From a virus: a stretch of DNA of 64,000 nucleotides. Below, in pieces: positions 11,751 through 48,467 of this stretch. The stretch's first letter is position 1, and each line of letters starts with the position of its first letter. The position numbers and the translations under genes are program-made. Below the pieces are notes generated by a model. It did not search any database. It was not told where the DNA came from and was given only the letters and a program-made list of their open reading frames with translations. The stretch spans positions 36,520 through 100,519 of the IMG/VR virus record IMGVR_UViG_3300049844_000277, one strand, 5' to 3'.

Positions 11751-12380
11751 TTAAGTACCGGCTCCACGGGAACCTCCTTCACAGAACATCATTCGCCGTA
11801 GGTCATCAGCATGCTGCTGGTCAGTAAGGACCATTTGCTCCAGCATGACCTTAAGCGACAAATTATCTCCGGCCATGTCTGACAGATGTCGTAACTCTTC
11901 AATCAATTGCTTCTCAGTTTGTAGAAGAGTCATGAAAATCTGGTGGAGGTCACTCATGTTCGGGATGACACCTACCTTAGGAATAGGTTCTCCGCCTAAC
12001 GCCGTAATCTTCATTGCGAGATGGTAGGCGTCCATCCGCTCTTCTTTGATGTGCTCTTTAAAGTGGTCGTAGATAACATCTCTAAAGTGCGCACGAATAC
12101 GATCGCCATAATTCATATACATGAAGATGATGGTATATTTGTAGCGCAGCAACTTATTACACTGAGCCACTACCTTATCCTGGGCAACCGCGAAGAATCC
12201 TTCCTCGGCCGATACAGCAAGAGGATGAGCACCAGCAGATGCTGTGGCAAGCGGAGGCATGGCGAACATCTCCTCCGTGTGCGGGGATGACTCCATTGTG
12301 TCCGCCATTGGACTGCTAGGAACTGGAAGACTCGAGCCACTCTCAGCCATGGAAGTACCCACTTTGTAGCGCTGCGTCAT
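11751..12380 (-). CDS. Hypothetical helical protein (209 aa) immediately after the rpoB-rpoC fusion; weak ferritin-like E/H spacing
   Basis: Start ATG overlaps the fusion-gene stop (ATGA). Paired E...H residues (KEHIKEERMDAYH, EQMVLTDQQH), but no clean ExxH pairs. Confidence 0.35.
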   Translation of the reverse strand: MTQRYKVGTSMAESGSSLPVPSSPMADTMESSPHTEEMFAMPPLATASAGAHPLAVSAEEGFFAVAQDKVVAQCNKLLRYKYTIIFMYMNYGDRIRAHFRDVIYDHFKEHIKEERMDAYHLAMKITALGGEPIPKVGVIPNMSDLHQIFMTLLQTEKQLIEELRHLSDMAGDNLSLKVMLEQMVLTDQQHADDLRRMMFCEGGSRGAGT

Positions 12381-15300: not shown

Positions 15301-18300
15301 AAGTACCCTCCCACTCCTCAGCGCTAACCATTACCCTCCGGCGGTCCGTGCCTATAAAAGTATCCGCGCGTACCTTTTCCCACGGAGTCCAGACATAGAG
15401 CGCCTTACCGTTACTTACGCGCTTACGGCGATACGAGACTACATGTTCGTGGTTAGGTGTTACACATAAATCAAGTTCACGGCTGCGCGTATGTATCAGA
15501 TCTCCGTCGAACGGCATGGATACTAACGCGGTCGGCTTCTGCCATTCAAATTCCCGGGTGTCTAAGTTAACCGTAGCGACACGAGTTTTTCCGGTGTACT
15601 TAGAAAAACGAACCCACCCTTTTTCTGTAAGAATATCTGTTTGATCATCGTAACATTTTGGCGTAGTTTTCCCGGTAATATGCTCGAGAAATCCCTTTAC
15701 GTTTCTCTTTTGGAGTTTGGGGTTATCTGATTCGTGCGTACCAATCACGGCGCCTACCGCGTGAAACAAGTTCTGACGAAGCTTCGCTTGTTCATCCGGC
15801 GGAAGAATTGGAGATTCAATTTGCTTCCGTAATGACTGATTATGAAGGATAGCGCTTTGGTACAGGTAGTTCGAATCACCTACTACGAGCTCAGAGCCAC
15901 TCTTCCCCGGAAGAATGGGTCGCATTATTGGAGGAAGAACAGGCAACTTGGATAGGACGTACGCATCTCCCGGCTTGAGCTCCTGCCGATTCAGCGCCTC
16001 AAGGAACTTCAACTGCTTTACTGCGTCATCTAGCTTCGTACCGGAGAGCGACTTAATAGAGTTACGGAGCTCCGCGATACGCGCCTTAACGTCGATAGCG
16101 TTAAGCTTTTTCTTTACCGCAGCGCCACCATTCGTATGGTGATACTGGTCAAAATCTTTCGCGGTCATCCCCAGCAAGCGACGGGCAGGGTCGGCGAATA
16201 CAGGATTTACAACGGGCTCGGCGAGCTCAATGTGGCTCCACCGTGTTCCAGTGGTACCGCCAGTAACCGCGGGGTCAAACAATCCCCCACGTTCAGCGGC
16301 CAAATCTTTAGCGCGTACTAACTTCTCATTTTGTACTTCGCCAGATGACATCCGTAGAATGTCTTTATCGGTAAGCGGAGAGAGCGTGCTGATACTTCCA
16401 CGCGAATCAACTTTGACCCCTGCGCCATGCAGCATACCGATGAACTTGTCATAAACGAACGACGACTTGAGTGGAGGGAGAGGCAGTCCCAGCTGAATCG
16501 CCCGCCAGAACTCATCGTTCTTCTGGCTCTTAATAGCCGCCGTCTCTCGAAGCACGTTCCGCGCATTATGTGCAACGAGGGCATTGAACTCCATTTTACC
16601 GACGGCTTTCGCGCCTTCGTCACCGCCCTTAATTGGCTGCTGATTAACGTCGTACGCACCCGTACCGCGCGCGGCGTAGTTGGTCTCCGTGGTCTTAAAC
16701 AAGCGAAGTACGTATTGCGGCCCAACCAGGATTCCCGGAATCTTTTTACCCGACACAGGGTCTATCAGCGTTTCCTTGTCCTTGACCTTGTGCTCCTTCA
16801 GTAAATCCTTTGCCCACTGTACGTTGTCACGCCCTGAAAAGTTTTCAACGACAATAGGTTTACCGATTTTCTTGGCAACCTTAGCGACACACGTCTCTAG
16901 TATTTGCGACGGATTGATTCGGGAAATTACGCCAGCCGAGGTATACAAAACCTCAATCGGCTTACCCGTCTCATCTTGAAGCATCTTGTGATCGGGAACA
17001 ATAAGGGAAACAACGCCCTTGTTTCCGTGGCGTCCTGTGTTTCCGCACCATACTGATTTACCATTTCTGCGAACATACAAAACATGTCCAGGAACAGTTA
17101 CACAGTAAACTGGTGATTTGTACGAATCTACAAAACATTCCACCTGACCCTTCTGTCGTTTGATATGTCCATGATTCACAGTAGGTGTTAATTTCGAATT
17201 AATAATTCGTACCTGCCAATAATCACGACACCAAAAATCTTTACCTTTGATTGTTTGATACCCTTCAGCTTTCGCTAACGACACATTAGCAGCTTTACCA
17301 ATATGTAGTGCGAGACGCTGAACATCATCCGCCAAACGTTTGGATGTTGTTTTGTAGCATATCGGTTGGCCATTTTTAGTATGACCGTCACCCCACATCA
17401 ACCAGTTGAATAGCGTCTCTTGATCCGCTCGAGACCAAGCGAACACCTCAAGCGGGATAAATTTCTCGTAAGACTTACCGAACTGTTTAAAGTACTGCCA
17501 ATATTGCTTGGAATGAATACGAACCTTATCACCTGTGTCCGTGAATAAAATCCCTTCCTCACGAAGAAACTTTTCTAACTGTTTTCGATTTGGCTGATTA
17601 ATTTGCGTAATCTCTATGCCGTAAGTACCGGATTCTTCAATCGTAATGAGATTACCTTCAGATAAAAACGCACCGAGAAGAGCGGCTAAGGTTTTAGTCG
17701 GAAGCGCTTTATCATCTAAAACACGTAAACCCCGGCCCCCTTGTCCCGCGCGCACAGTTATCGAGTCAAATACAAACGACTCAGGAGAGTGCCCCACCCA
17801 AATCCCATCCTTCTTATAACTGACCCTTTTTCCTGCGATTTCATACGCCGGTAAAAGTTGGAAAGATTTCTCGTTGCGCGGTTGAACGTACATATGATGT
17901 CCGTCGGTCACAAACAAATCTACCTGTTGTGATTCGATGCGGTACATCCGTCCGCCTTCTGGATACGAATGAATTGCGTCGGGCTCTAGGTACTCGATAT
18001 TTTCGCCATTCTGTAACGTACAAATCTTATCCGTAATACGTACATCCGCTATCGGTTTCCACCCTTCCCACGTGAGAACCTCAGTCTCTGCATCATAACA
18101 GAGCTTGTCTCCGACGCGCATCGGCTCACGGGTCTTAACCGTTACAACGACACGCTTGTCCGTCACATAAACATCCATGACTTCACCTTCGAAGTCGTGG
18201 TCCCACGTACGAACAAGTTCCCGATACGGCGTAACTAACGTCTTCTTTAGGTTACCGAGAAGCGCATCAGACGCCGAAAGTTTACCTCGTGTGACTCCAG

Positions 18301-20887
18301 CGATGAGTATGTCGTGAGGCATAACCTTCATGCCCTTCTTCACGACACCATTGGGGTCAAGCTTACGATACTGCTCTGCGGTATACTTCGACCCGTAGTA
18401 CTGCTGATGGATATCCCTGCCAACCTTGGAGTCGCGATCTACTTCAACAACTTCCTTGTACATATGCTCTGACGTTAACTTCTCGGCGGCGCCAGAGGAG
18501 ATAACGACGGCATCGTTGGAGTTCATTCCGTAATACGGAACGTACCCTACCGTCATATTCGTACCGAGAGCGAAGGAACCGTTGCGGGTAAAATTAGACT
18601 CCGCGAGCGGCTGATCCGCTTCTACCTTATCACCAGGCTTCACCAGAATGTCGTGATGAAGGTGTGTCTTAGATGCGAACGGAAAATTATTCTCGTATGG
18701 AACCCGAATCAAATCTTTCTCAGCAGCTACCTTTTCCCGATTACGCTCGGAGAGGTAGTCCTCTTTAAACTCATCCCAGGTATACTCATCCATGGAACCG
18801 TAGCCCCAAGGAGGACCGTGCTTCTCGTAAGCGCTTTTAGCGGCCTCTTTGGAATCGAAGCCAAGCATGCACTTGTCTTCGTCGTGAGACCCATCCTTCT
18901 TGCGCTGATGTACGACGTAAACATTATCGAAAGAACCATCTTCCTTCAGATAAACGTCGACCGTTTCACCGTCGTCGCCGACGGTCTTAGGAATGTGTCC
19001 GTAGGCCACGGACATCTTCTTTTCCCACTTCTCTCCTTCGGCGTTAGTGCCGGTACGAATATCTCCCGGTTCAAGCTCAATCTTAACGAGCACACCTTGA
19101 ACAGTCTTTTGACGCTTGACCGCCCCGCCTCGTTTCTCGAAAGCGCTCTTCTCGCTTAAGAAATCTTCAGCGTGCTTCTTTCCGCTAGGGTCGATGTAGA
19201 TGTATTGCCCATCAACCTTCACTACTTTGCCCGCTACAGGTGCCGTAGGAAGAACCAGCCCCGCGAGCTCCTTCTCCCAGCTTGAATGCTCAACACCCTT
19301 CTCAGTCAACTTATTGGCGGCTGATTGTACAAGAGGTGCTTCGCGATGAACGAGAGGAAGGGCTTGTGTTTGAACCTTACCACCCATGATGGCACGGTTC
19401 CCCTGCATCGACTCAAGGAACGGGACAAGGTTAGTTGCCGGAGAATACAACTGAGCCACGTCGTACAACTGGTGAGTCACCTTTGCCGCTGGTACGTGCT
19501 CCAACTGCCCTTTGTTCATTGCGGTGACCATTCCCGTAAGCTTTTGCTTAGGGAACGCCACGACCGCCTCGGACATTTGAGCCGCAGACAGCATCTCATA
19601 CTTACCGGACTTAATGTTCTTAGCTGCGGTGTAGAGATTTCCCGTAGCATCCCGGTGCGCCATCATCGCCGTGCGAATATCAATACCAGCGCGGAAGGAC
19701 TCAGACGTACGAACGGGGTCCAGTATCCCTAGATGACTCGAATGAATAGTACGCGCTTCAGCGGGAATCGCGCGCTCATTCGGAATACCTCCTTCGCCGA
19801 GAGATGTAACACGCACAGCGTGGTCGATGGCCTCCATCGGGTTGATGTGCGTGGGAATCGAGCTCAGTTGTGAACCCGTAAGAAAACTTCGGATGCCGGG
19901 CGAAAAGGGCGACGAAGGAAGAATCGCACGGAGTTCAGTCTTATGTGTTGCGCGACCCTTTACCTTATTTGCCAGGGCACGTGCATCCAGCGTTATACGT
20001 TCCTTGATAAAATCGTCTACCGAATGATACGTCTTGAAACGTAAAGCGTCACGATCATCAGTATCCGCATTATCCCGGTACACCTGTAATAGCCGCTTCG
20101 ACGCAACGAGTAGTGCCTGCGGCGTAACCGATGAAAAAGCGTGCCCCAAGGTTTGTTGGTTAACCTCGGGATCCATAGACGTAACAGCGTAAGCTGCTCG
20201 AATAGCATCAAGCTGTGTCTCAGGATTAGTCGCAGCACGTTTAGCCGGATGCACTACTTTCTCGTAAAGCTTATTCAAATGCTTATCGTGCTTACCTTCG
20301 AAAGCCGCCTCATTTTGATGAGCGACATCCGAGCCCCAATGAGTAGAAATATCAGCGTGCGGAACGCCTAATTTTCGAAGTACGGGGTAAAGCGGAATAG
20401 ATGTCGTCCCATACTCGATGTATGGATGTCCTTGGGCAGGGTCTAACGAAAGTCGAAAATTGGTTCCCTTCGACAAGTTAAAGGCGGCCTCTAGTTCCTC
20501 ATTTCCACGTCGCCGCGTATAGACGCCAGGCTTGAGCCGAAGTTGATTTGATACGTTGTACTCGTTACCGTCCAAAATAAAAGTATGCCGTCCTGTGAAA
20601 TAAGGAAGACTCAATAACGTAAAGTTCTTAACTTTCTCAACTTCTTTACCGGAAGCATCACGTAGTGTGACGGTTCCTTTTATCGGCTCAGAAAGAGAAC
20701 CACCGCTCAATAGCGCGTGCTTTTGATCGTTTGGGCCAAAGTCCTTTTCATGGACCTTCAGGTCACTGACCTCAATACTCTTATCCCGCAATGTCAGTGG
20801 AAAAGCGTTTCGCAACGCATCGAGCGCCTTTGCACGAATTTGAACTCGACGGGACTCGGCATCGGTAAGCACGGGAGTGAGCGACAT
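12377..20887 (-). CDS. rpoBC: Fused DNA-directed RNA polymerase beta subunit plus beta' N-terminal half (2836 aa), interrupted by three LAGLIDADG inteins
   Basis: Beta motifs: N-terminal GTFILDGNEYNVSNQLRLKPGVY; VTSLGEGGIPNERAIPAEARTIHSSHLGILDPVRTSESFRAGIDI; FLESMQGNRAIMGGKVQTQALP; NMTVGYVPYYGMNSNDAVVIS; MRVGDKL/TGRHGNKGVVS split by an intein; LETCVAKVAKKIG; GTGAYDVNQQPIKGGD...GKMEFNALVAH. From about aa 1500 come beta' motifs: GHIELAEPVVNPVF; LPVLPPIMRPILP; SNYLYQSAI; NRAPTLHRYGFIGAHAVPVAGKTIRVNP; NADYDGN/TFQIHVP split by an intein. The ORF ends about 90 aa after the catalytic loop. Confidence 0.9.
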   Translation of the reverse strand: MSLTPVLTDAESRRVQIRAKALDALRNAFPLTLRDKSIEVSDLKVHEKDFGPNDQKHALLSGGSLSEPIKGTVTLRDASGKEVEKVKNFTLLSLPYFTGRHTFILDGNEYNVSNQLRLKPGVYTRRRGNEELEAAFNLSKGTNFRLSLDPAQGHPYIEYGTTSIPLYPVLRKLGVPHADISTHWGSDVAHQNEAAFEGKHDKHLNKLYEKVVHPAKRAATNPETQLDAIRAAYAVTSMDPEVNQQTLGHAFSSVTPQALLVASKRLLQVYRDNADTDDRDALRFKTYHSVDDFIKERITLDARALANKVKGRATHKTELRAILPSSPFSPGIRSFLTGSQLSSIPTHINPMEAIDHAVRVTSLGEGGIPNERAIPAEARTIHSSHLGILDPVRTSESFRAGIDIRTAMMAHRDATGNLYTAAKNIKSGKYEMLSAAQMSEAVVAFPKQKLTGMVTAMNKGQLEHVPAAKVTHQLYDVAQLYSPATNLVPFLESMQGNRAIMGGKVQTQALPLVHREAPLVQSAANKLTEKGVEHSSWEKELAGLVLPTAPVAGKVVKVDGQYIYIDPSGKKHAEDFLSEKSAFEKRGGAVKRQKTVQGVLVKIELEPGDIRTGTNAEGEKWEKKMSVAYGHIPKTVGDDGETVDVYLKEDGSFDNVYVVHQRKKDGSHDEDKCMLGFDSKEAAKSAYEKHGPPWGYGSMDEYTWDEFKEDYLSERNREKVAAEKDLIRVPYENNFPFASKTHLHHDILVKPGDKVEADQPLAESNFTRNGSFALGTNMTVGYVPYYGMNSNDAVVISSGAAEKLTSEHMYKEVVEVDRDSKVGRDIHQQYYGSKYTAEQYRKLDPNGVVKKGMKVMPHDILIAGVTRGKLSASDALLGNLKKTLVTPYRELVRTWDHDFEGEVMDVYVTDKRVVVTVKTREPMRVGDKLCYDAETEVLTWEGWKPIADVRITDKICTLQNGENIEYLEPDAIHSYPEGGRMYRIESQQVDLFVTDGHHMYVQPRNEKSFQLLPAYEIAGKRVSYKKDGIWVGHSPESFVFDSITVRAGQGGRGLRVLDDKALPTKTLAALLGAFLSEGNLITIEESGTYGIEITQINQPNRKQLEKFLREEGILFTDTGDKVRIHSKQYWQYFKQFGKSYEKFIPLEVFAWSRADQETLFNWLMWGDGHTKNGQPICYKTTSKRLADDVQRLALHIGKAANVSLAKAEGYQTIKGKDFWCRDYWQVRIINSKLTPTVNHGHIKRQKGQVECFVDSYKSPVYCVTVPGHVLYVRRNGKSVWCGNTGRHGNKGVVSLIVPDHKMLQDETGKPIEVLYTSAGVISRINPSQILETCVAKVAKKIGKPIVVENFSGRDNVQWAKDLLKEHKVKDKETLIDPVSGKKIPGILVGPQYVLRLFKTTETNYAARGTGAYDVNQQPIKGGDEGAKAVGKMEFNALVAHNARNVLRETAAIKSQKNDEFWRAIQLGLPLPPLKSSFVYDKFIGMLHGAGVKVDSRGSISTLSPLTDKDILRMSSGEVQNEKLVRAKDLAAERGGLFDPAVTGGTTGTRWSHIELAEPVVNPVFADPARRLLGMTAKDFDQYHHTNGGAAVKKKLNAIDVKARIAELRNSIKSLSGTKLDDAVKQLKFLEALNRQELKPGDAYVLSKLPVLPPIMRPILPGKSGSELVVGDSNYLYQSAILHNQSLRKQIESPILPPDEQAKLRQNLFHAVGAVIGTHESDNPKLQKRNVKGFLEHITGKTTPKCYDDQTDILTEKGWVRFSKYTGKTRVATVNLDTREFEWQKPTALVSMPFDGDLIHTRSRELDLCVTPNHEHVVSYRRKRVSNGKALYVWTPWEKVRADTFIGTDRRRVMVSAEEWEGTFPELVFAGDTCEVSTDNKKRRTANLVGTFTPDPLAFAEFVGWWIAEGWISTTGTQVSLCQAATSPHVRAVDLCFKKLDIPFVRKTYTRKDGYQVIWWTIRLRSLADWLTHHCGRGCESKHLSSDILAWPSAMLEGLLRGYLRGDGTLHPSLAKNVKNPKTHYRRKPLSAHAGTASLQLIDDLQHLAAKIGYQVIFRGICPPVKDHHLPHYLFSVRGFSDVTIESGSFTEAYPYKGTVYCVTVPNGTVVVRRNGKPSVSGNSSFFQKRIMKRQQDISGRGTIAPDGSLSMDEIGIPIDMLWGMYGKFIISRLIRRGFGAIQAKEMLEKKHPAAHDALMAEIKERPVMVNRAPTLHRYGFIGAHAVPVAGKTIRVNPFAELGFNADYDGNCFLGSTKVVLTAEGAACKALLGDEAKETAMKFAAETRVCWTSAVQALVEAELQEIPHAEEPYSIDKNGARSYAVPEGFRVLSYDHSASKSVMSPVTGLTIEDGCEVAKVEMRRGLSVTASTNESLCIYNHETGQIEATAPSDSVGKLAPVVRHLPLTGSQGDFEFGWMVGAFLSDGFLLGETDHYFGYTKVSDVHRERFAAAVNAFEGKLIKRNTYREVHDASNGITGQSIKDHFSGAQKCVELFKTCYLDERVPGRSCLSKRVPAFGDWSEEARWGVLIGMLNGDGTLTVSAGKAKLQVMAALHTSSAALAASLRFLLQTIGVRCSVSEAYPKEGRLQKAVAYTIPISTVDLQRNVSWLRRGIWNNSKSLEALNLLEADELVDQVDIVPVPKNLMTLASSRTGPCAEDSSFCASLATLRSKRKEAPYVTRQNARRMLHFFRTAKTPDVDAWARIVENVGITWDLVESVEVLRKETVYDLIVPDTQIFAVNDGLVVWDTFQIHVPVLKPAIDEVKGMTLSNLLFSDREKDSLMVAPRMEAMLGVHLASKAESSANDKVRHFKNREEALAAYKRGEITLNTRVEVGT
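12644..14137 (-). mobile_element. Intein 3 (about 498 aa, LAGLIDADG type) inserted in the catalytic NADFDGD Mg-binding loop of beta'
   Basis: Sequence NADYDGN-CFLGSTKVVL...FGWMVGAFLSDGFLLG...WGVLIGMLNGDGTLT...VYDLIVPDTQIFAVNDGLVVWD-TFQIHVPV. The flanks align with the bacterial NADFDGDQMAVHVP. The C-terminal residue appears to be Asp with Thr at +1; the exact boundary is uncertain. Confidence 0.7.
14522..15655 (-). mobile_element. Intein 2 (378 aa, LAGLIDADG type) in RNAP beta' N-terminal region
   Basis: Starts CYDDQTDILTEKGW. Motifs FVGWWIAEGW and LLRGYLRGDGTL. Ends YCVTVPNGTVVVRRNGKPSVSGN followed by Ser. Excision gives ...ITGKTTPK-SSFFQKRIMKRQQDISGRGTI, aligning with the bacterial [24 protein letters not shown]. 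Confidence 0.75.
17039..18100 (-). mobile_element. Intein 1 (354 aa, LAGLIDADG homing-endonuclease type) in RNAP beta between GDKL and TGRHGNKG
   Basis: Starts CYDAETEVLTWEGW (block A-like). LAGLIDADG-like motifs LLGAFLSEGNL and FNWLMWGDGHT. Ends ...YCVTVPGHVLYVRRNGKSVWCGN followed by Thr. Excising it restores GDKL-TGRHGNKGV, matching the bacterial GDKMAGRHGNKGV. Boundaries verified on the DNA. Confidence 0.8.
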
Positions 20888-28836: not shown

Positions 28837-29439
28837 ATGTACTGTGCTACATGTAATACTGACTTACCAGAATCCGCGTTCGGAGATAGAGCAGAAACAG
28901 CCTCTGGAAAACGATATTATTGTCGAAAATGCGGAACCAAGAAAAACGTACACTGGCGAAAAAAGAAAGCGGCAGAAGGTTTCTGCTATTCATGCGGTAA
29001 GCGAAAACCTCTTAAAAATAAAACACGGTGTAGGCGTTGCATAGCAATAGCGAAAAAAAGATATCTTGAGAAAACACCTGAAATGCACGCGGAAGCGAAC
29101 CTGAAACAACGAACCAGGTTGGCCGCATTAAAACGGGAAGTTTACGCCGCGTACGGCGGTTATCGCTGCGCCTGTTGTGGTGAAAAACACGAAGAATTCT
29201 TGAGTATTGATCACATAGAAGGAAACGGTAAGCAGCACCGGAAGGAAGTAGGCAGTGGGGGACGCGGTAGTGCGTTGTACAGGTGGCTAAAGAAAAATAA
29301 TTTTCCACCGGGGTTCCAGATTCTGTGCATGAACTGTAACTTTGCGATAGGACACTACGAATCGTGCCCACACAACCCCACGGTAAAAAGAGTAGTTAAA
29401 CGCAGAAGAACCAGGGAACACACATGGCCATCAAGATGA
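28837..29439 (+). CDS. HNH endonuclease with N-terminal zinc ribbons
   Basis: CACCGEKHEEFLSIDHIEGNGKQHRK...ILCMNCNFAIGH (Cys/His-box with HNH spacing); N-terminal CxxC...CxxC ribbons. Confidence 0.7.
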   Translation: MYCATCNTDLPESAFGDRAETASGKRYYCRKCGTKKNVHWRKKKAAEGFCYSCGKRKPLKNKTRCRRCIAIAKKRYLEKTPEMHAEANLKQRTRLAALKREVYAAYGGYRCACCGEKHEEFLSIDHIEGNGKQHRKEVGSGGRGSALYRWLKKNNFPPGFQILCMNCNFAIGHYESCPHNPTVKRVVKRRRTREHTWPSR

Positions 29440-31259: not shown

Positions 31260-32093
31260 CTACTCAAGAAAAACATCTTGAGACGTTTCTACTTGATTTG
31301 CCAATAAGTATGTCTTGATTTGCGCGAGAGTGTCCTTCTTAATCTGCCGGACACGTTCAGAAGATAAATCTACTCTTCTGGAAATCTGCCGGAGATTTTT
31401 AGGCTCTTCTCTCGCGCCGTAATACGCCAGGACAATATATTTATCTCGTTCGCGTAGAGATAAGTTATCTAACGCACGACGTAACATAGTAAGGCCGTAC
31501 GTATTCACTAAATCACGTTCTAAGCTCACATCGCAGTGTCCAGCTACGTCAATAGCGCCAACAGCATCCAACGTAACGTGCGGCTGCTCTACATCAACAC
31601 CGCCACCACTCTTACGTTGCGCTCTTAACGCTTTCTGCTTATGGGCAGGGACACGAATAATTCCTTGACTATCTAACTCCTCTAGTATTTTCTCGCGAAC
31701 CCACCACGCAGCGTATGTAAGAAACTTAGTATTGCGTGAGGTATCAAAACGATCCGCCGCGACTAGAAGTCCTACGTTACCGGCGGATATCAGTGACGTC
31801 AATAGTTCGTTGTCGAACTTTGGTCCCTTAGTGCGATAAGCATATTCTTTCGCTACTTTCACAACAAAGCGAAGGGCTCCCGAAATAAGTCGATCACGCG
31901 CTTTAAAGTTTCGCGGAGTATTACACCTAGGACATCGGGTAGCTGAAGATCCCAAGCTATACGAAGACCTGCACGCAGAACAAGTGCGGTAGGCCTTTAC
32001 TAGATCGCGTTCCTCTCGTTGAGGAATGAATTCATTACCACGTAAATCAGCGAAATAAGCCGAGACTACACGGTCATTGTCCATTGGGTTCAT
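31260..32093 (-). CDS. Sigma-70 family RNA polymerase sigma factor with N-terminal zinc-ribbon insertion
   Basis: Region 2.2 GNVGLLVAADRFD; region 2.3/2.4 FLTYAAWWVREKILEEL; region 4 LSLRERDKYIVLAYYG...LRQISRRVDLSSERVRQIKKDTLAQIK. Inserted CSACRSS...CPRCN. Confidence 0.8.
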   Translation of the reverse strand: MNPMDNDRVVSAYFADLRGNEFIPQREERDLVKAYRTCSACRSSYSLGSSATRCPRCNTPRNFKARDRLISGALRFVVKVAKEYAYRTKGPKFDNELLTSLISAGNVGLLVAADRFDTSRNTKFLTYAAWWVREKILEELDSQGIIRVPAHKQKALRAQRKSGGGVDVEQPHVTLDAVGAIDVAGHCDVSLERDLVNTYGLTMLRRALDNLSLRERDKYIVLAYYGAREEPKNLRQISRRVDLSSERVRQIKKDTLAQIKTYLLANQVETSQDVFLE

Positions 32094-34143: not shown

Positions 34144-37100
34144 GTGCCCACAACCCGAGGAGCTCTCATGGAGAAGCCCGCAGAAATCTGCAGCGGATGT
34201 CCTCGAGAAATCGAGACAGAGACCCATCCCTACGGTTATGTTGAATCGTGGATTGATTCAAACGCCGAACTCATCATCATAGCGGAAGCTCCTGTCTGCG
34301 ATCGCCACGGTAACGTTCCTAGCTCTTTCGACGATGACAGCGGTAAAATCATTCGAACCGCCGTATCCGAGCTACGTAACTTACCTTCGCACAGTAAGCT
34401 AGCGGTCTCGTATACGTACGCAGTACTCTGTACAAGCAACCAGGGCGACAAAGACCCCGAAAAAGCCGTACTGCAACGGTGCCGTACGCTGCTCCAAGCT
34501 GACTTACGTCGCGCAAACAAGAACGCCGTCCTGCTGGTAATGGGTATGTCTGCCCTTCGCGCACTAGAAATAAAAGCCGCGAAGTTGAAGGACATGCAGG
34601 GGCGATTACTCCAAAAGCAGAAAATTGGAGAAGGTGATGACGCTCCGATATTCGATGTCGTCGTAACCGTCTCGACAAAACAGTTGTTCGCGATGCCGGG
34701 AATCTACACGACGTTCGTAGCGGACCTGCGACGAGCTGCGGACGCTGCGAGCGCAGGTGGATTAACACACGTTACCCCACTCGAAAAACTAACCGAAAAA
34801 TACGTAATCCCGAAAACAATCGAAGAAGTACGCCAAATCTGTCGCGAAATACTGAATTATCAAGAAGGTAAAGTATCTGCAGATAACTGGCCTATCTCTG
34901 TAGACACCGAGACAAACACCAAGTTTCCACACCGAGAAAACTTGAAAGTATTGGCGGTGTCCTTCGCATGGGCGGAGGGTAAAGCTACTGCAATTCCATT
35001 AGAGCACCCCACTACACCCTACGCGTACCAAGACGCGATACCGTACGTACGCGAAGTCTTAGCGAGCAAGAAGCCGAAGTTCCTTCATAATGCTAAGTTC
35101 GACCTTAAAGTCTTCATGAAAGCGGGCTGGCCGATTAACGGGTTCGCTTGGGATAGCATGCTAGGGGAACATGCTCTCGAAGAAGATAAAAAGGGACAGT
35201 ACGGATTAAAGCAGTTGACCCGTACTTTCTTCCCGGAATTCGCGACATACGCCGACTCTCTTCAAGAAATGCTCACGCACGAAGAGGGCGACTCGCAGCT
35301 CGACAACCTGAGGAAAGCGCCAAAAGCTTCAACTTCGAAAGATGGGGGATTTGAAAGTATCCCACTTCCCACGCTATTGCTTTATGCGGCAGTCGATGCA
35401 GATATGACACGGCGGCTAGTGTTACTGCAGGAAAAAAGAATTACCGACGAGCAGAACAGAGTAATCGTAGAAACGAATATAACGAAGAGAGAGCAGGCGC
35501 TGGCGATTTCGGCGAGGAAGAAAATACGGCTGAGAATTGCGCCGCTACATAGTGAGACGGAGATGTTGAAGAAGTACATGGTGCTCTACCCCGTCCCAGA
35601 ACTCTGTTCCGCTGATAAGCCGGTAAGACAACTAGTACTGAACAACGTATTCCCCGTTACCCCAGCTCTCGCGAGAATGGAGTTTAAGGGCATACGGATA
35701 GACAGACCGTACCTAACTACGTTGCGTGAAGCGTTGGGAAAAGTCGTCACAGAAACCGCTGCAGAGCTACAGGATATGGCGGGCAGAGAGATAACTCTCA
35801 ATAGTCCGGCAGAGATAGCTGAAATCCTGTTCAACAGCGGGTTTATACATCCAACAACTCACGCCCCCACGACTTATCCCCTCACAGGCATCGGTAAGAC
35901 AAAAACGGGACAGATACAAACCACCGAGAAAGTGATGCAGTACTTGGTGGCGAAGTATCAGTGCCCCTTTGCAGCTAAAAAACTAATCTACGCCAAGGCA
36001 TATAAAGCGAAAAATACGTTCTGTCAGAATGTGTGGGATCTCTCGGAGCTCGACGGGTATCTACACACGAACTACAACCAGCACGGCACAAATTCGGGTA
36101 GACTGTCCTGTGTCGCGGGAGAAACCGTACTAGATACTAATTACGGAAAAATCGAGATACAGAATCTCGATCTGGAGAAGATGCCGGGGATTACCATCCA
36201 GACCCACGAACTCCGCGAACAACCGATTCTACGTAAAATAGAAAAAGGCATTGAAGAAATGTTCGAGGTCGAACTCGAAGACGGGCGCACCATCACCGTG
36301 ACTAAAAAACATCGCTTCTTGACGCCGACGGGGTGGAAACGACTCGAGGAACTGTCAGAAAATGCCGAAATACTCTGCGCCGCCTCCGTGGGTAGTGGAC
36401 CAAATATGCGACTCGTTACAACCCGGATAAAAAGCATACGTCCCGTAGGTCCTAAGAAAGTCTGGGACCTCACAGTAGCGGTCGATCACTCTTACATCGC
36501 CCACGGATTTGTTAACAAAAATTCCAACGATGAAAACATGCAAAACATCCCCAAGAAATTGGCGGGTGTTAACATTAAGAAAGTGTTCCTCCCGGACGAT
36601 GATTCGTATGTCTTCGTCAACGCTGATGCGAAGGGTGCCGAAGTACGAATCCTAACCGCCTACTGCCGAGACCAAGCGCTCATACAATCGCTCAACGCGG
36701 GGCAGGACACGCATTGTTTCATCGCGTCCAAGATTGTTGAAATCGTACGTCAGAGTCCTGGTGCAACGGCGGTTCTCGGAAGCATGAATCTAAGCGATGA
36801 GTATCCTCTGACGTACGAAGACTTCGCGGCTAGAGACAAGCTAAAAGAAACCAATAGTAAGTACGGGGCGATGCTCGACAAATTCAGAACCGCTGTCAAA
36901 CGCGTAGTGTTCGGTATTCTGTACGGCGCCGGTCCTCAGAAAATTGCGGAAACTATTGGTATCAGTCTAGAGCAAGCACAACAGCTCATTCACACTCTGT
37001 TCGCTTTGTTTCCGTCCATCAAGACGTACATGGCGCAGACAAAGTGGGAACTACAACAATTTAATTTAGTCGAAACGTTCTTCGGTAGACGCCGTAGATT

Positions 37101-37527
37101 TAGTGTATCGGGAGCGCCGAAGTATCAAATAGGGAGAGCTGAACGTCAGACAGTTAATTTTAAAATCCAAAGCACAAGCTCTGATATCGTAATGGGACGA
37201 TTACTAGCAATCGAAGAACCTCTCAAAGATTTGGGAGGTAGACTTCTATTGACAGTGCACGACAGCCTTGGGTTTCAAATCAAGAAAAAATATATCCGAC
37301 AGCTACCTGATTTCATTTATACGTATTTGGAGAAGGGTGCAGCAGACGCCCATCCATGGCTCCCAGTCGCATTTAAATGGGACTACGAAGTTGGGTCATC
37401 ATACGGCGAACTCAAATCACTGGAATCCTACCTTGCCAACACGAAAATAGAGGAATACTCGAACGATGCCTACGTCGCCGAGGCTTTCACAGAAGAAGAC
37501 GCAAGAACCTCCCTCTCCGAACCCTGA
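34144..37527 (+). CDS. polA: Family A DNA polymerase (Pol I-like) with N-terminal UDG-like domain and 3'-5' exonuclease domain, carrying a mini-intein
   Basis: UDG family-4-like ELIIIAEAPVCDRHG...FDDDSGKIIRTAV. Exo I SVDTETNT; Exo II FLHNAKFDLKVF; Exo III LLLYAAVDAD. Motif A NADAKGAEVRIL; motif B KRVVFGILYGAG; motif C LTVHDSLGF. GRLS/SNDENMQNIP split by the intein. Confidence 0.9.
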   Translation: MPTTRGALMEKPAEICSGCPREIETETHPYGYVESWIDSNAELIIIAEAPVCDRHGNVPSSFDDDSGKIIRTAVSELRNLPSHSKLAVSYTYAVLCTSNQGDKDPEKAVLQRCRTLLQADLRRANKNAVLLVMGMSALRALEIKAAKLKDMQGRLLQKQKIGEGDDAPIFDVVVTVSTKQLFAMPGIYTTFVADLRRAADAASAGGLTHVTPLEKLTEKYVIPKTIEEVRQICREILNYQEGKVSADNWPISVDTETNTKFPHRENLKVLAVSFAWAEGKATAIPLEHPTTPYAYQDAIPYVREVLASKKPKFLHNAKFDLKVFMKAGWPINGFAWDSMLGEHALEEDKKGQYGLKQLTRTFFPEFATYADSLQEMLTHEEGDSQLDNLRKAPKASTSKDGGFESIPLPTLLLYAAVDADMTRRLVLLQEKRITDEQNRVIVETNITKREQALAISARKKIRLRIAPLHSETEMLKKYMVLYPVPELCSADKPVRQLVLNNVFPVTPALARMEFKGIRIDRPYLTTLREALGKVVTETAAELQDMAGREITLNSPAEIAEILFNSGFIHPTTHAPTTYPLTGIGKTKTGQIQTTEKVMQYLVAKYQCPFAAKKLIYAKAYKAKNTFCQNVWDLSELDGYLHTNYNQHGTNSGRLSCVAGETVLDTNYGKIEIQNLDLEKMPGITIQTHELREQPILRKIEKGIEEMFEVELEDGRTITVTKKHRFLTPTGWKRLEELSENAEILCAASVGSGPNMRLVTTRIKSIRPVGPKKVWDLTVAVDHSYIAHGFVNKNSNDENMQNIPKKLAGVNIKKVFLPDDDSYVFVNADAKGAEVRILTAYCRDQALIQSLNAGQDTHCFIASKIVEIVRQSPGATAVLGSMNLSDEYPLTYEDFAARDKLKETNSKYGAMLDKFRTAVKRVVFGILYGAGPQKIAETIGISLEQAQQLIHTLFALFPSIKTYMAQTKWELQQFNLVETFFGRRRRFSVSGAPKYQIGRAERQTVNFKIQSTSSDIVMGRLLAIEEPLKDLGGRLLLTVHDSLGFQIKKKYIRQLPDFIYTYLEKGAADAHPWLPVAFKWDYEVGSSYGELKSLESYLANTKIEEYSNDAYVAEAFTEEDARTSLSEP
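36109..36522 (+). mobile_element. Mini-intein (138 aa, no endonuclease domain) in the PolA GRLSS-NPNLQNIP motif
   Basis: CVAGETVLDTNYGKIEI...KKVWDLTVAVDHSYIAHGFVNKN followed by Ser. Excision restores TNSGRLS-SNDENMQNIP, matching the family-A consensus. Boundaries verified on the DNA. Confidence 0.8.
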
Positions 37528-38793: not shown

Positions 38794-40398
38794 TTACGCG
38801 TAGAATTTCAGGTCATTAGACACAAGCTTATGTGCAAACCATCCGAACAGTTGTGCATGAAGACAATCGTCAGGTAATTGGGGACTGTGTCGCCAAACCT
38901 TTTTACCTGACGACGTAACTTCTTCATAGACGTTCAGAATATCTTTAATCGCTTCACGTGATTCTTCTCGTGGCGGATATACAACCGAACCCCGCTTCAG
39001 AAACATGAGATAGTTATCAATCATCGTCGTGCGGTCAGCGAGATACCTGTCCAAGCCATTGTGCTTTATCGGCTGACCTAACGCTCCGTACTGCATCATG
39101 TGCACGCGGTGAGCGCCTAGACGGTCTCGTAGCGTCGCATTAGGTAGTGCGCCTTCGCCAGCGTCACCGATGACCATCGCAACAGCGTAATGCTGGCAAA
39201 TCGCAGCGATATTCTCGACATCTGCGACGGCGTTGCTTCCTGGGTAAATTCGGAAGTAGAGCGTACGTAACTTCTGTGTTGCGGGATGAAAGCCCCACAC
39301 CCATAGGACCGTACGGCTAACGCCCGTCGTTCCGCCGCCCGACCAATCAACGCCGGCAACAGTAATCGAACAGCCTTCCAAATTTTTACCTGGCGTAGGG
39401 GATATCTGGGGGCCTGTGCACAGTGCTTCGAGCTCCTCCAGTGAAATAAGTCTACGACCTACGGCATCTGATACACCCAAGACCTCATTGCGGAACTTAG
39501 CCGCGGAAAACATGTCATGGTCACGGAGGATATCATCCCAACGCGCCTGAGCGTCCTCGACTGCACTCGGCTTTTCGGGCGTATTTTTTACACACGACGG
39601 GATGTTCAGCGGCATAATCAATTGAGAAATGTGAAAGCCTTTAATGGAGTGTTTTCCAGTACCCTTGTCGGCAATACGCATATCGATCCACTGCCCTGCG
39701 CGGGGATTTAAAACCTTCCCACAATTAAGACAAATGGGGCCGTGTTTACCGAGAGACTTCTCACTAATAACGAAGTTGTATTTACTACACCCCTCGCACT
39801 TCATCACCCATTCGCTCTGAGAAGACTGATCCCACAAAAATTGAATGGAGTTCTCCATAGTTTTCGGAGTTCCGGCGTAAGTTTCGAACCGGTACGCGGA
39901 ATTCTTCATACACGCCAAAATTACGGGAATGACACTGTCGTATAATACGTCCTGTACTTCGTCAAACAAACAACGGTCAGCGGAAAAACCACGCGCACGA
40001 TCCGCGTCATCGGTCGCGTACGTGAACCCGTTCTCTGACCCGTTCGTATACGACCGATGTAATACGCGATCCGCGTGATCTGGAGATAAGAAGTATTTCT
40101 TAATCAACGGCGAATACGACAATGTTTTACCAACACGCGTGTTAGAGAACAAGAGAGTTTGCTCGCGTGAAGGACTGGAATAGTAACTCTTGAAAAATGG
40201 GCGAGAAACAGATTCAGATATAATAAAGTTAGCCAGAGATGTGCTTTTACTGACCTGACGCGCAGTCATCAGAAGCGTCGATTTATAACCTCCGTCATAT
40301 ATCGATTTGAAAAATGGATAGTCTGTAAGACTAAAGGGAGCGCCGTCTAGCCATAATAGACGCTCAGCCACTTCCGAAAGACGTTTACTTCCAATCAC
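38794..40398 (-). CDS. terL: Terminase large subunit (ATPase plus RNaseH-like nuclease) with zinc-ribbon insert
   Basis: Walker A LLMTARQVSKST; Walker B CLFDEVQDV; YAGTPK coupling motif; CEGCSKYNF...CLNCGK ribbon; nuclease-domain GVDWSGGG...MVIGDAGEG. Confidence 0.85.
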   Translation of the reverse strand: MIGSKRLSEVAERLLWLDGAPFSLTDYPFFKSIYDGGYKSTLLMTARQVSKSTSLANFIISESVSRPFFKSYYSSPSREQTLLFSNTRVGKTLSYSPLIKKYFLSPDHADRVLHRSYTNGSENGFTYATDDADRARGFSADRCLFDEVQDVLYDSVIPVILACMKNSAYRFETYAGTPKTMENSIQFLWDQSSQSEWVMKCEGCSKYNFVISEKSLGKHGPICLNCGKVLNPRAGQWIDMRIADKGTGKHSIKGFHISQLIMPLNIPSCVKNTPEKPSAVEDAQARWDDILRDHDMFSAAKFRNEVLGVSDAVGRRLISLEELEALCTGPQISPTPGKNLEGCSITVAGVDWSGGGTTGVSRTVLWVWGFHPATQKLRTLYFRIYPGSNAVADVENIAAICQHYAVAMVIGDAGEGALPNATLRDRLGAHRVHMMQYGALGQPIKHNGLDRYLADRTTMIDNYLMFLKRGSVVYPPREESREAIKDILNVYEEVTSSGKKVWRHSPQLPDDCLHAQLFGWFAHKLVSNDLKFYA

Positions 40399-40426: not shown

Positions 40427-40627
40427 ATGAGCAACGTTGGACAGGAAAAAACTGTACAAGGCGAAAATTATTGGGACCGCTGCGTTATGCCACGGATTAC
40501 TCCGTACGAAGGATCGACTCTAAGCGTAGCATATAAGTGTTTCGAACTAGCCTGTAGAATCACACGATCCTTTCAACGCAAAAACATTCTTAGCGATAGT
40601 AGCGAATACGTAAGGGTCCTCGTGTAG
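40427..40627 (+). pseudogene. 66-codon ORF whose first 27 residues resemble the N-terminus of the MoxR-like gene at 41213; probable duplicated 5' gene fragment
   Basis: MSNVGQEKTVQGENYWDRCVMPRITPYEG versus MSNTAQNSVATTESYWDKYGIPRVTLHEA (12 of 27 identical, no gaps). The 3' end is overlapped by the antisense EndoVII gene. Confidence 0.35.
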
Positions 40628-41185
40628 TAAGCCGAAAGCAGCATTACAATTACCGTGCGCTAACCCCCGAACAACGCCTGTAGTGTGGTCATGGTCAATT
40701 TTCGGAACCTCAAAAAGAGGGCGATCGCATAACCAACAACGTCCCGACTGAGCGATAAGTAACGTATGCCATCGGGAAAGAGTTAGTCCGTAGGTGTGAC
40801 GTGCACGGTGTCCTGGATTAGCGAGACGCCACGCTTTTGTACGCGCTTTCGCCGTTGCCGAATTAGCACGGTAGTACGCAGCTTGATACTCTCTAATCTT
40901 ATCGCGGTTACTAGCGTAATATTTCGAAGCACGAGCCTTTACTTTCTGCGGATTAGCTTTACGGTAGTCAGCTCTTTGTAATCGGATCTCTTCCGCGTGC
41001 TCCTCCCTATAATTCTTACTGTACTTCTTAATCCGAGGCGCATTCTTCTTACTATATTTTTTCTGCTGTGCGCGAATTTCCTCACGATGCGCGTAATAGT
41101 ACTGAGCCGCCAATATTCTCGAGCAGGGCGCGCATCGCCCATCTTTGCGTTTCTCCGTACTCCCACACTTGTTACATTTTCCCAT
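40547..41185 (-). CDS. Recombination endonuclease VII family protein (T4 gp49-like, HNH-related) with basic repetitive N-terminal region
   Basis: CWLCDRPL...IDHDHTTGVVRGLAHGNCNAAFG (EndoVII zinc/His-Me signature). N-terminus has repeated KYSKKN/KYYASN basic units and a CNKCG...CAPC ribbon. Confidence 0.7.
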   Translation of the reverse strand: MGKCNKCGSTEKRKDGRCAPCSRILAAQYYYAHREEIRAQQKKYSKKNAPRIKKYSKNYREEHAEEIRLQRADYRKANPQKVKARASKYYASNRDKIREYQAAYYRANSATAKARTKAWRLANPGHRARHTYGLTLSRWHTLLIAQSGRCWLCDRPLFEVPKIDHDHTTGVVRGLAHGNCNAAFGLLHEDPYVFATIAKNVFALKGSCDSTG

Positions 41186-46728: not shown

Positions 46729-47331
46729 ATGGACCTCTACTGTCTTCGTGTTCGTAGGAACATCGCTGGACGTAAATTTCCCTTCGATAGAGTGTATCTC
46801 GCGAAATACGGGGATCACGTTATATTCAAAAGATTATTCAGGTATGCCTTCATCCTTCCCGTTGAAGGCGTACTAAAGGAAACGCTGTACTGTCTCCCCA
46901 TTGAAGACAGCATGACGCACGCATTCGACAGAGTAGAAACGCCTGAGAAAATTCCAGATGTAGAGTGGAAGACGCTCATCGACTCGACGGACTGGGTACT
47001 CGCGGTACCGATTCTATCGAAGTACGTGACCGCTAACATGCCGAGATATATTATTGCCAAGTCCACGGTGCCCCGAAGAGACAAGAAAAACTCTAACGCG
47101 TGCGCAAACCCGTTTCCAAACATGACGTACTTGCAGACACCCGAGCAAAACATTCGGCCAATATGTGTCGCATGTCCGAACTTTATCCAGCATCAGAACG
47201 GTCACTGCGAACTTGGAGATAAGCTCTGCTACGACTCTCTTTCCCTGGGAATCCGAAATCACTTTGAAGAAGGCATGATGGTTCCTCCTGCCCCGGAAAA
47301 AGAACAAGTGACTGAGGAGGGGAACGACTAA
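46729..47331 (+). CDS. Cys-rich hypothetical protein (about 200 aa), first gene of the RT operon
   Basis: ATG at 46729 after the terminator (the track ORF begins earlier, at 46630, inside the CT tract). CVACPNF...HCELGDKLC. Stop overlaps the RT start (TAATG). Confidence 0.5.
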   Translation: MDLYCLRVRRNIAGRKFPFDRVYLAKYGDHVIFKRLFRYAFILPVEGVLKETLYCLPIEDSMTHAFDRVETPEKIPDVEWKTLIDSTDWVLAVPILSKYVTANMPRYIIAKSTVPRRDKKNSNACANPFPNMTYLQTPEQNIRPICVACPNFIQHQNGHCELGDKLCYDSLSLGIRNHFEEGMMVPPAPEKEQVTEEGND

Positions 47332-48467
47332 TGCCTGTCTACAAACAAAATTTCCTTGAGCGAATTGAAGTACGCGAGCCACTCATCAAAGGCGTACCCC
47401 TTATCGTCGATGACTGGAGTCTGGCATTCCAGCTAGGTTTTACGGGTAAGACCGCGTGGTACATCATCCATGAACGCGCCAGTATGTACCGGGAGTTCAT
47501 GCTGAAAAAGAAGTCTGGGGGTCTCCGTAGAACGTTTGATCCAACTAACCTCCTGCGCATTTTCCAGAAACAACTACGCGCACGCATTCTGTTCCCGCTC
47601 GTATCTCGCCTAGGTCCGCACGTAGCCGCGTATCAGGTCGGTAAGAGCACGCTTGATGCGGCAAACTGGCACCTGCGCGAGTGTAAAATCTGCGACGACA
47701 CGACCCGTCCCGGCACGAGTCCTGTGAAACATGAGTGTCCTCGACGGGGTGTGAAGTTCAAAATGGATTTGAAGGATTTCTTTCTATCGACTCGTCGGTC
47801 CTGGATACGACAGTATTTCCACGAAGTCGTCGGATACAATCACTACGTCTCGTCGATTCTGGGGCACCTACTGACGACGAGTTATAAAGATGAGCGGAGA
47901 AAAGACAGGAACGGCGTTCCGCCAGGCGCATTAACAGCTGGCGATATTTGTAATCTCATCTGTGATTGGAAGATAGATCAACCGCTTATGGCGGCACTAC
48001 CCACAGGCTGGAAGTACACACGGTACGCCGATGACTTGTATTTCTCGTACGACGCACCCCTTCCATCAAAAGAAGTAAACAAGATAATCCGACTAGCCTC
48101 GGACACCATCACCGGCTCCGGTTACCGGGTAAATTGGAAAAAGCTCCAAGTGCAACACTGGAGCCGGCCCCAGCGAGTACTAGGTATCAATATCAACAGA
48201 AAACTAAACATCCCTGCGACTGAGTACCGTCGAATGCACATGATTCTGTATAAAGCAAAGAAGCATGGATTCCAGGCGCAACTTACGTGGGCAAAGAAAG
48301 CCGATGTTCCGGAACTTCACGCCTGGATAACCGGCAAACTGAATTACTACGCGCGATTCGCACCAGATAAAACCAATAAACTACAACGGCTTTATCAAGA
48401 AGCGAAGGACGCGAATCCAAGCGAAGAGGCCGCGGTGTTCAACTTTGGAACCGGTGCAAACCCATGA
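47331..48467 (+). CDS. Reverse transcriptase (RT domain motifs 1-7 plus thumb GxxNYY), 378 aa, no endonuclease or maturase extension
   Basis: Motif 1 KKKSGGLRRTFDP; motif 2 AAYQVGKSTLDAA; motif A KFKMDLKDFFLS; motif B' GVPPGALTAGDICNLICDW; motif C TRYADDLYFS; motif 6 YRVNWKK; motif 7 RVLGININ; thumb WITGKLNYYARF. Insert CKICDD...HEC between motifs 2 and A. Confidence 0.8.
   Translation: MPVYKQNFLERIEVREPLIKGVPLIVDDWSLAFQLGFTGKTAWYIIHERASMYREFMLKKKSGGLRRTFDPTNLLRIFQKQLRARILFPLVSRLGPHVAAYQVGKSTLDAANWHLRECKICDDTTRPGTSPVKHECPRRGVKFKMDLKDFFLSTRRSWIRQYFHEVVGYNHYVSSILGHLLTTSYKDERRKDRNGVPPGALTAGDICNLICDWKIDQPLMAALPTGWKYTRYADDLYFSYDAPLPSKEVNKIIRLASDTITGSGYRVNWKKLQVQHWSRPQRVLGININRKLNIPATEYRRMHMILYKAKKHGFQAQLTWAKKADVPELHAWITGKLNYYARFAPDKTNKLQRLYQEAKDANPSEEAAVFNFGTGANP

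Follow-up and report, generated by a model that had tools for sequence, protein, structure and literature searches.

A family A DNA polymerase with a UDG-like domain and a predicted mini-intein in its TGR motif from an uncultivated phage, and the naturally split relatives of the intein

The polymerase gene and its UDG-like domain

The DNA analysed here, referred to as the window, is a stretch of 64,000 nt from a viral genome (positions 36,520 to 100,519 of IMG/VR record IMGVR_UViG_3300049844_000277), and its gene of interest is polA, for a family A DNA polymerase that begins with a domain related to the uracil-DNA glycosylases (UDGs) of family 4 and is interrupted by a sequence with the features of an intein. 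The window is phage DNA, from an uncultivated, tailed and probably large phage. The polA precursor is specified by an open reading frame (ORF) at 34144..37527 on the plus strand, exactly where an earlier note made from the letters of the window had placed it, and was recognised from a program-made list of ORFs, protein profiles and an alignment with Taq polymerase. From the GTG codon at 34144 it comprises 1127 aa, and residue numbers are counted throughout from this codon and not from the likely ATG start. The true start is probably the ATG at 34168, which would give a precursor of 1119 aa; it is favoured because the sequence GAGGAG lies 6 nt upstream and because homologues begin at this point with MSKP or MAKP. 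Predicted splicing would remove 138 aa and leave a mature product of 989 aa, or 981 aa if counted from ATG 34168.

Pfam matches within the ORF are to DNA_pol_A (5.8e-66) and DNA_pol_A_exo1 (1.2e-14). The latter marks a 3'-5' proofreading exonuclease domain (34801..35418, plus strand; about residues 220–425) with the motifs ExoI SVDTETN (D254, E256), ExoII NAKFDLK (D320) and ExoIII YAAVDAD (Y414, D418); these five residues are invariant in the alignment of homologues and the DEDD-type site is intact. The polymerase domain is in two parts. The N-extein (35653..36108, plus strand; residues 504–655, corresponding to domain 1 of the Taq alignment) runs from the thumb to the TGR motif and ends HGTNSGRLS, while the C-extein (36523..37527, plus strand), identified by Pfam and by the Taq and homologue alignments, begins SNDENMQNIP and carries motif A (D827 in NADAKGAEVR), motif B or O-helix (RTAVKRVVFGILYG, residues 915–928, with its R, K, F and Y present), motif 6 (NFKIQSTSSD) and motif C (TVHDS, residues 1037–1041, with the catalytic D1040). 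Motifs A, B and C, which are invariant across homologues, and the SGR sequence, which splicing would restore, are those of a family A polymerase. In motif C, a serine replaces the glutamate that usually follows the catalytic aspartate. This HDS sequence had been singled out in the earlier note, and it is a trait of the clade and no anomaly, being found in 118 of 121 members and likewise in gp31 of phage SPO1 (ITVHDSIV). Given this spread, and as SPO1 gp31 is a working replicase, the idea that HDS marks an inactive or special polymerase was rejected. Identity with DpoZ, the aminoadenine polymerase, was also rejected, as the score was 114 bits against a cut-off of 500.

The UDG-like domain (34168..34779, plus strand; about residues 9–212) precedes the exonuclease and polymerase domains, an arrangement borne out by Pfam and by the alignment of homologues. 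The N-terminal 212 residues alone pass the Pfam model UDG (PF03167) with 28.2 bits (gathering score 24.3, E-value 2.2e-6), as do 25 of 36 aligned relatives. A profile built from 36 such N-terminal domains matches the Sulfolobus family-4 UDG (4zbx) at 9e-16 and then TM0511, UdgX and the Thermus UDG (1ui0) at about 1e-7 to 1e-6. An AlphaFold (AF2) model made from 60 sequences reached a predicted local distance difference test score (pLDDT) of 92.5, and Foldseek comparison of this model with the PDB returned UdgX or family-4 UDGs for all of the 35 best matches (E-values down to 4.5e-10), followed by the UDG-polymerase of phage phiLo (9qhs), one of the known UDG-PolA phages. The predicted fold is thus the alpha/beta fold of UDGs, and the identification of the domain as a family-4 UDG homologue, made in the earlier note from the first 200 or so residues, is supported by sequence, profile and predicted fold, no family other than UDG having matched.

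The conserved sites of family-4 enzymes are only partly retained. C16, C19, C96 and C113 align with the four [4Fe-4S] cysteines of 4zbx and are invariant in the full-length homologues, so that the domain would be expected to bind such a cluster. Motif A reads A-E48-A-P50-V, compared with G-E-(A/G)-P-G, the Glu and Pro being kept and both Gly replaced. The stacking Phe of the PF.G..GK motif is kept as F62 in SFDDDSGK. Motif B, H-P-(S/A), is replaced by S177-T-K179 (in V-S-T-K-Q), and the catalytic His is therefore missing; it is absent from all 121 family members, whereas the conservation of S177 and K179 in this family exceeds 90%. Neither the clade-wide occurrence of HDS and of the UDG fusion, nor the lack of the motif-B His, nor the lack of a penultimate His in the intein (see below) had been pointed out in the earlier note.

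A search of 5.8 billion proteins found 157 relatives of the polymerase at E ≤ 1e-10. The 16 closest are 62–68% identical and 964–990 aa long, about the length of the query less 138 residues, and at the intein site they read NSGRLSSNDENMQNIP uninterrupted. Megablast with the polA gene gave no match among 50,697 phage records, and the best full-length matches in cultured phages, found by tblastn, are to SPO1-like and SP-10-like Bacillus phages at an identity of only 24–25%. Viral contigs of IMG/VR often carry members of the family, and several of these contigs are 180–195 kb in length. The clade, known only from metagenomes, forms an uncultivated and deep branch of the UDG-PolA polymerases. A prophage or cellular origin finds no evidence in these searches: just three contigs of metagenome-assembled genomes match the family, and one of these is identical to a contig of an IMG/VR viral genome. 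Two further insertions occur among the homologues. P0040, which is 59% identical, has in its exonuclease domain (KPKxFH/N, after query residue 316) another, different intein, about 376 aa long and equipped with LAGLIDADG and Hint domains, and the clade therefore has at least two intein sites. A large subgroup of homologues (P0075–P0118) has an insertion of 68–160 aa after query residue 396, in the linker between exonuclease and thumb, which could be analogous to 'Insert 1' of the SP15-like polymerases.

The insert in the TGR motif

The candidate class-1 mini-intein (36109..36522, plus strand; residues 656–793, 138 aa) was identified by Pfam, TIGRFAM, the Taq alignment and similarity to solved inteins. 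Its limits are set by the Taq alignment, which halts at S655 of the query and, at the same residue of Taq polymerase, continues with N793/S794. The intein starts CVAGETV and ends GFVNKN, the next residue being S, and its flanks read NSGRLS/SNDENMQNIP. The insertion falls within the TGR motif, a short way upstream of motif A and beside the polymerase active site. The earlier note had located the site correctly, but the sequence it gave, GRLSS-NPNLQNIP, contains the Pol I consensus NPNLQNIP, the actual reading being SGRLS/SNDENMQNIP; a conserved motif is indeed interrupted, as it had also stated, but this is the TGR motif upstream of motif A and not strictly a pre-O-helix motif. The insertion is in frame, and in the 16 closest homologues, which lack the intein, the motif reads GRLSSNDENMQNIP without interruption.

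The Pfam model Intein_splicing (PF14890) matched with 35.8 bits, equal to its gathering score, and TIGR01445 (intein_Nterm, NCBIfam) with 28.2 against a cut-off of 24.5. Significant similarity to solved mini-inteins was found for DnaB (4o1r, 3.8e-10; 1mi8, 7e-10) and DnaE (2keq, 8.8e-9). All four of the splicing blocks A, B, F and G could be located, in agreement with the earlier description of a 138-aa mini-intein without a homing endonuclease. In block A, C1 (C656) aligns with residue 1 of relatives; in block B, the counterparts of T65-K-K-H68 in the solved DnaB and DnaE inteins are TGNH, TANH and TKDH; in block F, VWD120LTVAVDH127SY aligns with VFDLTVPGxHNF; and in block G, N138 (N793) and the +1 nucleophile S794 are present, with K137 at the penultimate position where His is expected, a variation that phage inteins tolerate (PMC5050341) and that is compatible with class 1. 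Only about 14 residues (A92–T105) occupy the usual site of endonuclease insertion or splitting, and Pfam and NCBIfam profiles detected no LAGLIDADG or HNH domain in the intein, which, having no endonuclease, would no longer be self-mobile. Compared with the solved DnaB (1mi8, 4o1r) and DnaE (2keq, 4kl5) mini-inteins it is alike in length (about 135–155 aa), Cys1, TxxH, D...H and terminal Asn, but differs in having PolA as host, the TGR motif as insertion site, a +1 Ser and a penultimate Lys. A bacterial intein-like (BIL) or toxin HINT domain was considered and rejected: PT-HINT scored only 15 bits, and the segment fits an intein in its terminal Asn, in the Ser at +1 and in that the host motif is restored exactly. 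The N-terminal half of the intein ends in Cys90 (EILC90A; nt 36376..36378), and a cysteine recurs at this point in the relatives examined (ICCV in L005 and P0039, VICA in L001 and P0074, ILCA in P0073); it might conceivably pair with Cys1 as a redox switch.

A word-index protein search with the intein alone gave no matches, and its relatives were obtained by searching 1.84 billion representative proteins exhaustively with HMMER, which gave 1844 at E ≤ 1e-3. About 100 of the best 150 or so are found at the same PolA site, with the pattern ...TGRL(S)/C...HN/S(S)xPNLQNIP. They comprise about 41 large inteins (about 430 aa), 27 of middle size (about 280 aa), 21 mini-inteins (128–145 aa) and 11 split forms, the last being those that end just past the N-terminal intein half. 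Among 80 related polA loci of IMG/VR, eight carry the intein, and its distribution is therefore patchy, as expected of a mobile element. As for the literature on a named PolA intein or on this TGR site, only a general statement was found, to the effect that inteins can occur in bacterial DNA polymerase I (PMC4760082). A comparable element exists in gene 31 of SPO1 (L004; NC_011421, 829..4488), which contains a group I intron with a putative homing-endonuclease ORF, gp31.2. It too is a mobile element in the same stretch of a UDG-PolA gene, with exon 1 ending at about GRLSSNEP and exon 2 starting NAQQFP, a position 4–5 codons from the intein site of the window, but it is an intron acting at the level of RNA and its endonuclease is of another family, whereas the element in the window is an intein and acts at the level of protein.

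Selection on the intein was gauged against the split intein of L005, its closest relative (see below). The proportions of non-synonymous (pN) and synonymous (pS) differences are 0.184 and 0.919 in the N-terminal intein half and 0.226 and 0.781 in the N-extein; synonymous sites are saturated between the two, and pN and pS are given in place of dN/dS. Non-synonymous divergence is as low in the intein as in the extein, which argues that the intein has long been under constraint, and on these sequence comparisons the purifying selection on it is comparable to that on the extein. The GC content of the intein (0.488) is close to that of the gene (0.491).

Taken together, the gene very probably encodes a replicative family A polymerase, composed of UDG-like, exonuclease and polymerase domains and made as a precursor with a class-1 mini-intein in its TGR motif. 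The intein is very probably competent to splice. Splicing would take the standard course of four steps, beginning with an N-S acyl shift at Cys656; after trans-esterification to Ser794, Asn793 would cyclise and an O-N shift would follow, so that S655 would be joined to S794 in an active polymerase of about 989 aa; the unspliced enzyme should be inactive. By analogy with the solved UDG-PolA polymerases, the UDG-like domain would sit on the polymerase and touch the template strand ahead of the active site, and we infer that it is a homologous template-contacting module in which glycosylase activity is doubtful or altered. With Ser-x-Lys in place of the motif-B His, a module for template binding or base sensing, or a glycosylase of altered chemistry, seems likelier than a canonical uracil glycosylase.

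Several observations weigh against parts of this reading. The penultimate residue of the intein is Lys (codon AAA), whereas it is His in the roughly 105 PolA-site relatives with a readable C-terminus, apart from P0195 (Leu), and C-terminal cleavage could be slowed or impaired as a result. Modelling of the intein by AF2 from its sequence alone gave a pLDDT of just 44, too low to bear out the HINT fold. In the UDG-like domain, the loss of the motif-B His in the whole family and the replacement of the motif-A Gly residues make glycosylase activity doubtful, and the role of the domain is assigned by analogy. Lastly, no genes for thymidine modification were seen in the window, which shows only part of the genome.

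Split relatives and alternative readings

The UDG-PolA fusion, the class-1 mini-intein and the HDS form of motif C are all already known, and in these respects the gene is a new, uncultivated example. What is unusual is that the seven nearest relatives of its intein are all naturally split, two of these loci having a gene for a Vsr-like endonuclease between the halves. Three homologues of about 740 aa end just past the N-terminal intein half. In loci L001 and L003, the N-terminal part of the polymerase with the N-terminal intein half (IntN) is followed by an ORF of 419 aa and then by the C-terminal intein half (IntC) with the remainder of the polymerase, which starts MGNRTDTRFTPRKIASIRSLGLQDVWDISVADDHSYVAHGFVNHN followed by SSDENMQNVP. 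The intervening endonuclease ORF (8189..9448 in L001, 3210..4469 in L003) is a called gene in L003 with a match to DUF559 (Vsr-like), and the contig of P0073 has the same order with a DUF559/Vsr-like ORF between the halves. In these three loci, the DUF559/Vsr-like ORFs range from 326 to 419 aa and overlap the start of the next gene. L005 differs in that only 52 nt separate the IntN stop from the IntC start and no endonuclease gene lies between the halves. At this junction (2659..2716), a TGA in the frame of IntC lies just upstream of the ATG, and the codon used as a start in L001 is ACG. A downstream shift of the start codon seems to have taken place.

Such arrangements correspond to the 'fractured genes' described by Dassa et al. 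2009 (PMC2677866), in which split inteins have a free-standing, Vsr-like homing endonuclease between their halves. L001, L003 and P0073 share that layout, and L005 lacks the endonuclease, like gp41-7. The window differs in having a contiguous intein, within a single uninterrupted ORF, and a family A polymerase is outside the host genes listed there. The relation between the two states was examined with a tree built by neighbour-joining from the N-terminal half of the intein (45 taxa, 91 aa, midpoint-rooted). The window is sister to the split L005/P0039 in 100 of 100 bootstraps and belongs to a clade of eight tips, the other seven of which are split; clades of at least four and at least six tips around the window were otherwise entirely split in 86 and 75 of 100 replicates, respectively. 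The window holds the contiguous allele of an intein lineage whose members in the nearest related phages are naturally split. This is compatible with two histories: the allele of the window could be the last one that was never fractured, or a split intein could have been re-fused by a deletion. On the tree, re-fusion is the more parsimonious of the two.

Discussions of gene fracture by split inteins have treated it as practically irreversible. That the contiguous intein is a split one healed secondarily, which would be an alternative history and not an alternative function, is a possibility to which we give somewhat less than an even chance. The window lacks a block of 55 nt that in L005 codes for the IntN tail (SEDRDQDN), includes the TAA stop codon and takes in some of the spacer, and loss of this block would have rejoined the halves in frame. 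Its length (3 × 18 + 1) exactly offsets the +1 frame shift between the two ORFs of L005, and codons of the window linker align with the 5' untranslated region of L005, the ATG of M100 with the IntC start of L005, and the GTG of V94 with the IntC start of L001. Together with the nesting of the window among seven split alleles, these alignments speak for a deletion, and the IntN tails of L005 (SEDRDQDN followed by a stop) and L001 (ERDQT followed by a stop) look homologous, which suggests a single ancestral split state. On the other side, the endonuclease cassette is mobile and able to convert contiguous alleles time after time. It is thus plausible that fractures with homologous tails arose independently more than once, and the remaining allele to have escaped invasion may be that of the window; moreover, the tree was built from 91 residues by neighbour-joining with midpoint rooting, and a deletion scar is not visible in the window.

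A separate question is what the UDG-like domain does. We advance, tentatively and as a minority view alongside the healing of a split intein, that its Ser-x-Lys site represents a new catalytic or base-sensing variant of family 4 within a replicase. Fusions of UDG and PolA and their architecture have been described (PMC10201439; Czernecki et al. 2023), and occur in SPO1-like phages, SP-10, SP15-like phages (YerA41, phiLo) and N4-like phages (cluster 17). The N4-like polymerases have lost the catalytic residues of their UDG domains and are regarded as inactive, while SPO1, SP-10 and SP-15 have kept theirs (PMC10201439). Cryo-electron microscopy of the YerA41 and phiLo enzymes revealed an active UDG domain that excises template deoxyuridine (dU) about 5 nt ahead of the polymerase active site (bioRxiv 10.1101/2025.03.26.645540), and the key residues of this SP15-like type are H178, P55 and E53 (Missoury et al. 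2025, bioRxiv 10.1101/2025.03.26.645540), of which the window protein keeps two of three. It shares the UDG fusion and the HDS motif C with SPO1, but lacks the motif-B His, unlike the SPO1 type, which keeps it (MIHPN), and the SP15 type. Compared with the N4-like domains, to judge from their description, the motif-B region is replaced by a conserved Ser-x-Lys and not deleted, and the Fe-S cysteines are kept; by coverage, the best cultured matches are also SPO1-like and not N4-like. Identity with any cultured phage polymerase is, as already noted, only about 24–25%.

That the domain is a working glycosylase of non-canonical chemistry or specificity, acting on uracil or on a modified pyrimidine of the template with Ser-x-Lys in the role of the His, is on balance unlikely. 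It would couple base surveillance to replication as in the SP15-like and SPO1-like polymerases. In its favour, Glu48, Pro50, Phe62 and the four cysteines are conserved, and the retention of S177 and K179 in spite of a divergence of the family down to about 25% identity points to selection on the site. This reading would also agree with the activity of the UDG domains of YerA41 and phiLo (bioRxiv 10.1101/2025.03.26.645540) and with the nearest cultured relatives being SPO1-like, phages whose DNA contains modified uracil (hydroxymethyluracil in SPO1; PMC10201439). Set against this are the clade-wide absence of the catalytic His, the view that N4-like UDG-PolAs without catalytic residues are inactive (PMC10201439), and the finding of no base-modification genes in the part of the genome that the window covers.

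A decaying intein, in which the change of His to Lys blocks Asn cyclisation and either cripples polA or acts as a slow, conditional brake on maturation of the polymerase, is improbable. In its favour, Lys at position 137 is found in no other PolA-site relative whose C-terminus can be read, and the penultimate His is known to assist Asn cyclisation (PMC4031507). Against it, every other catalytic position is intact, purifying selection is like that on the extein, and the polymerase is presumably essential to the phage. Some class-1 inteins of mycobacteriophages have Gly, Lys or Ser in place of this His, the tested one (Gly) splicing completely, and a His of block F, which the intein of the window has as H127, can substitute for the penultimate one (PMC5050341).

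Genomic setting and meaning

The genes around polA are those of a phage. An RNase T-type exonuclease gene lies just downstream of polA, and the order sigma factor, unknown gene, PD-(D/E)XK nuclease, polA and RNase T is common to the window and L001. The sigma-70-like factor is encoded at 31260..32093 (minus strand) and the terminase large subunit at 38794..40398 (minus strand). The window also encodes ParB, a SNF2 helicase, two PD-(D/E)XK nucleases, PrimPol, a VapE-like protein, RuvC and a reverse transcriptase. The last (47331..48467, plus strand; RVT_1, 2.4e-14) lies between ORFs without a family match and could belong to a diversity-generating retroelement or be a defence or anti-defence enzyme. 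Two free-standing ORFs similar to HNH or endonuclease VII (28837..29439, plus strand, and 40547..41185, minus strand) are possible homing endonucleases in the replication and packaging region.

A giant ORF of 2836 aa (12377..20887, minus strand) specifies a fused beta/beta' RNA polymerase with matches to Rpb2_3, Rpb2_6, Rpb1_1 and Rpb1_2, and next to it a second ORF, of 599 aa, also resembles RNA polymerase beta (9086..10885, minus strand; PHROG 3015, 6e-15, and PHROG 25354, 1e-38). The giant ORF contains an InPase match (PF18823) at residues 590–709 and at least two intein-like inserts, one with LAGLIDADG_3 at residues 1166–1231 and the other with Intein_splicing at residues 2326–2745 (25 bits, below the cut-off). 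Several elements of this kind thus occur in the genome.

For annotation, the outcome is that the gene should be recorded as one polymerase precursor and not as an enzyme of 1127 aa with an odd insert. Beyond this single gene, the TGR motif of PolA emerges as a major and barely described homing site for inteins, with more than 100 clusters (at 50% identity) in full-size, mini and split forms, and the site, together with the intron of SPO1, is a clear added case of mobile elements converging on the active-site motifs of polymerases. A clade that has kept its Fe-S site while motif B has been altered bears on the role of UDG domains inside replicases. The inteins of the window and L005 form a natural contiguous and split pair that differ by one block of 55 nt, providing a system in which the origin or the reversion of split inteins can be studied, and they are a possible source of tools for cis- and trans-splicing with a +1 Ser. 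If the contiguous intein does prove to be a healed one, the reversal of a gene fracture would have been caught beside its split sister allele, and the two would make up a matched cis/trans pair of closely related inteins.

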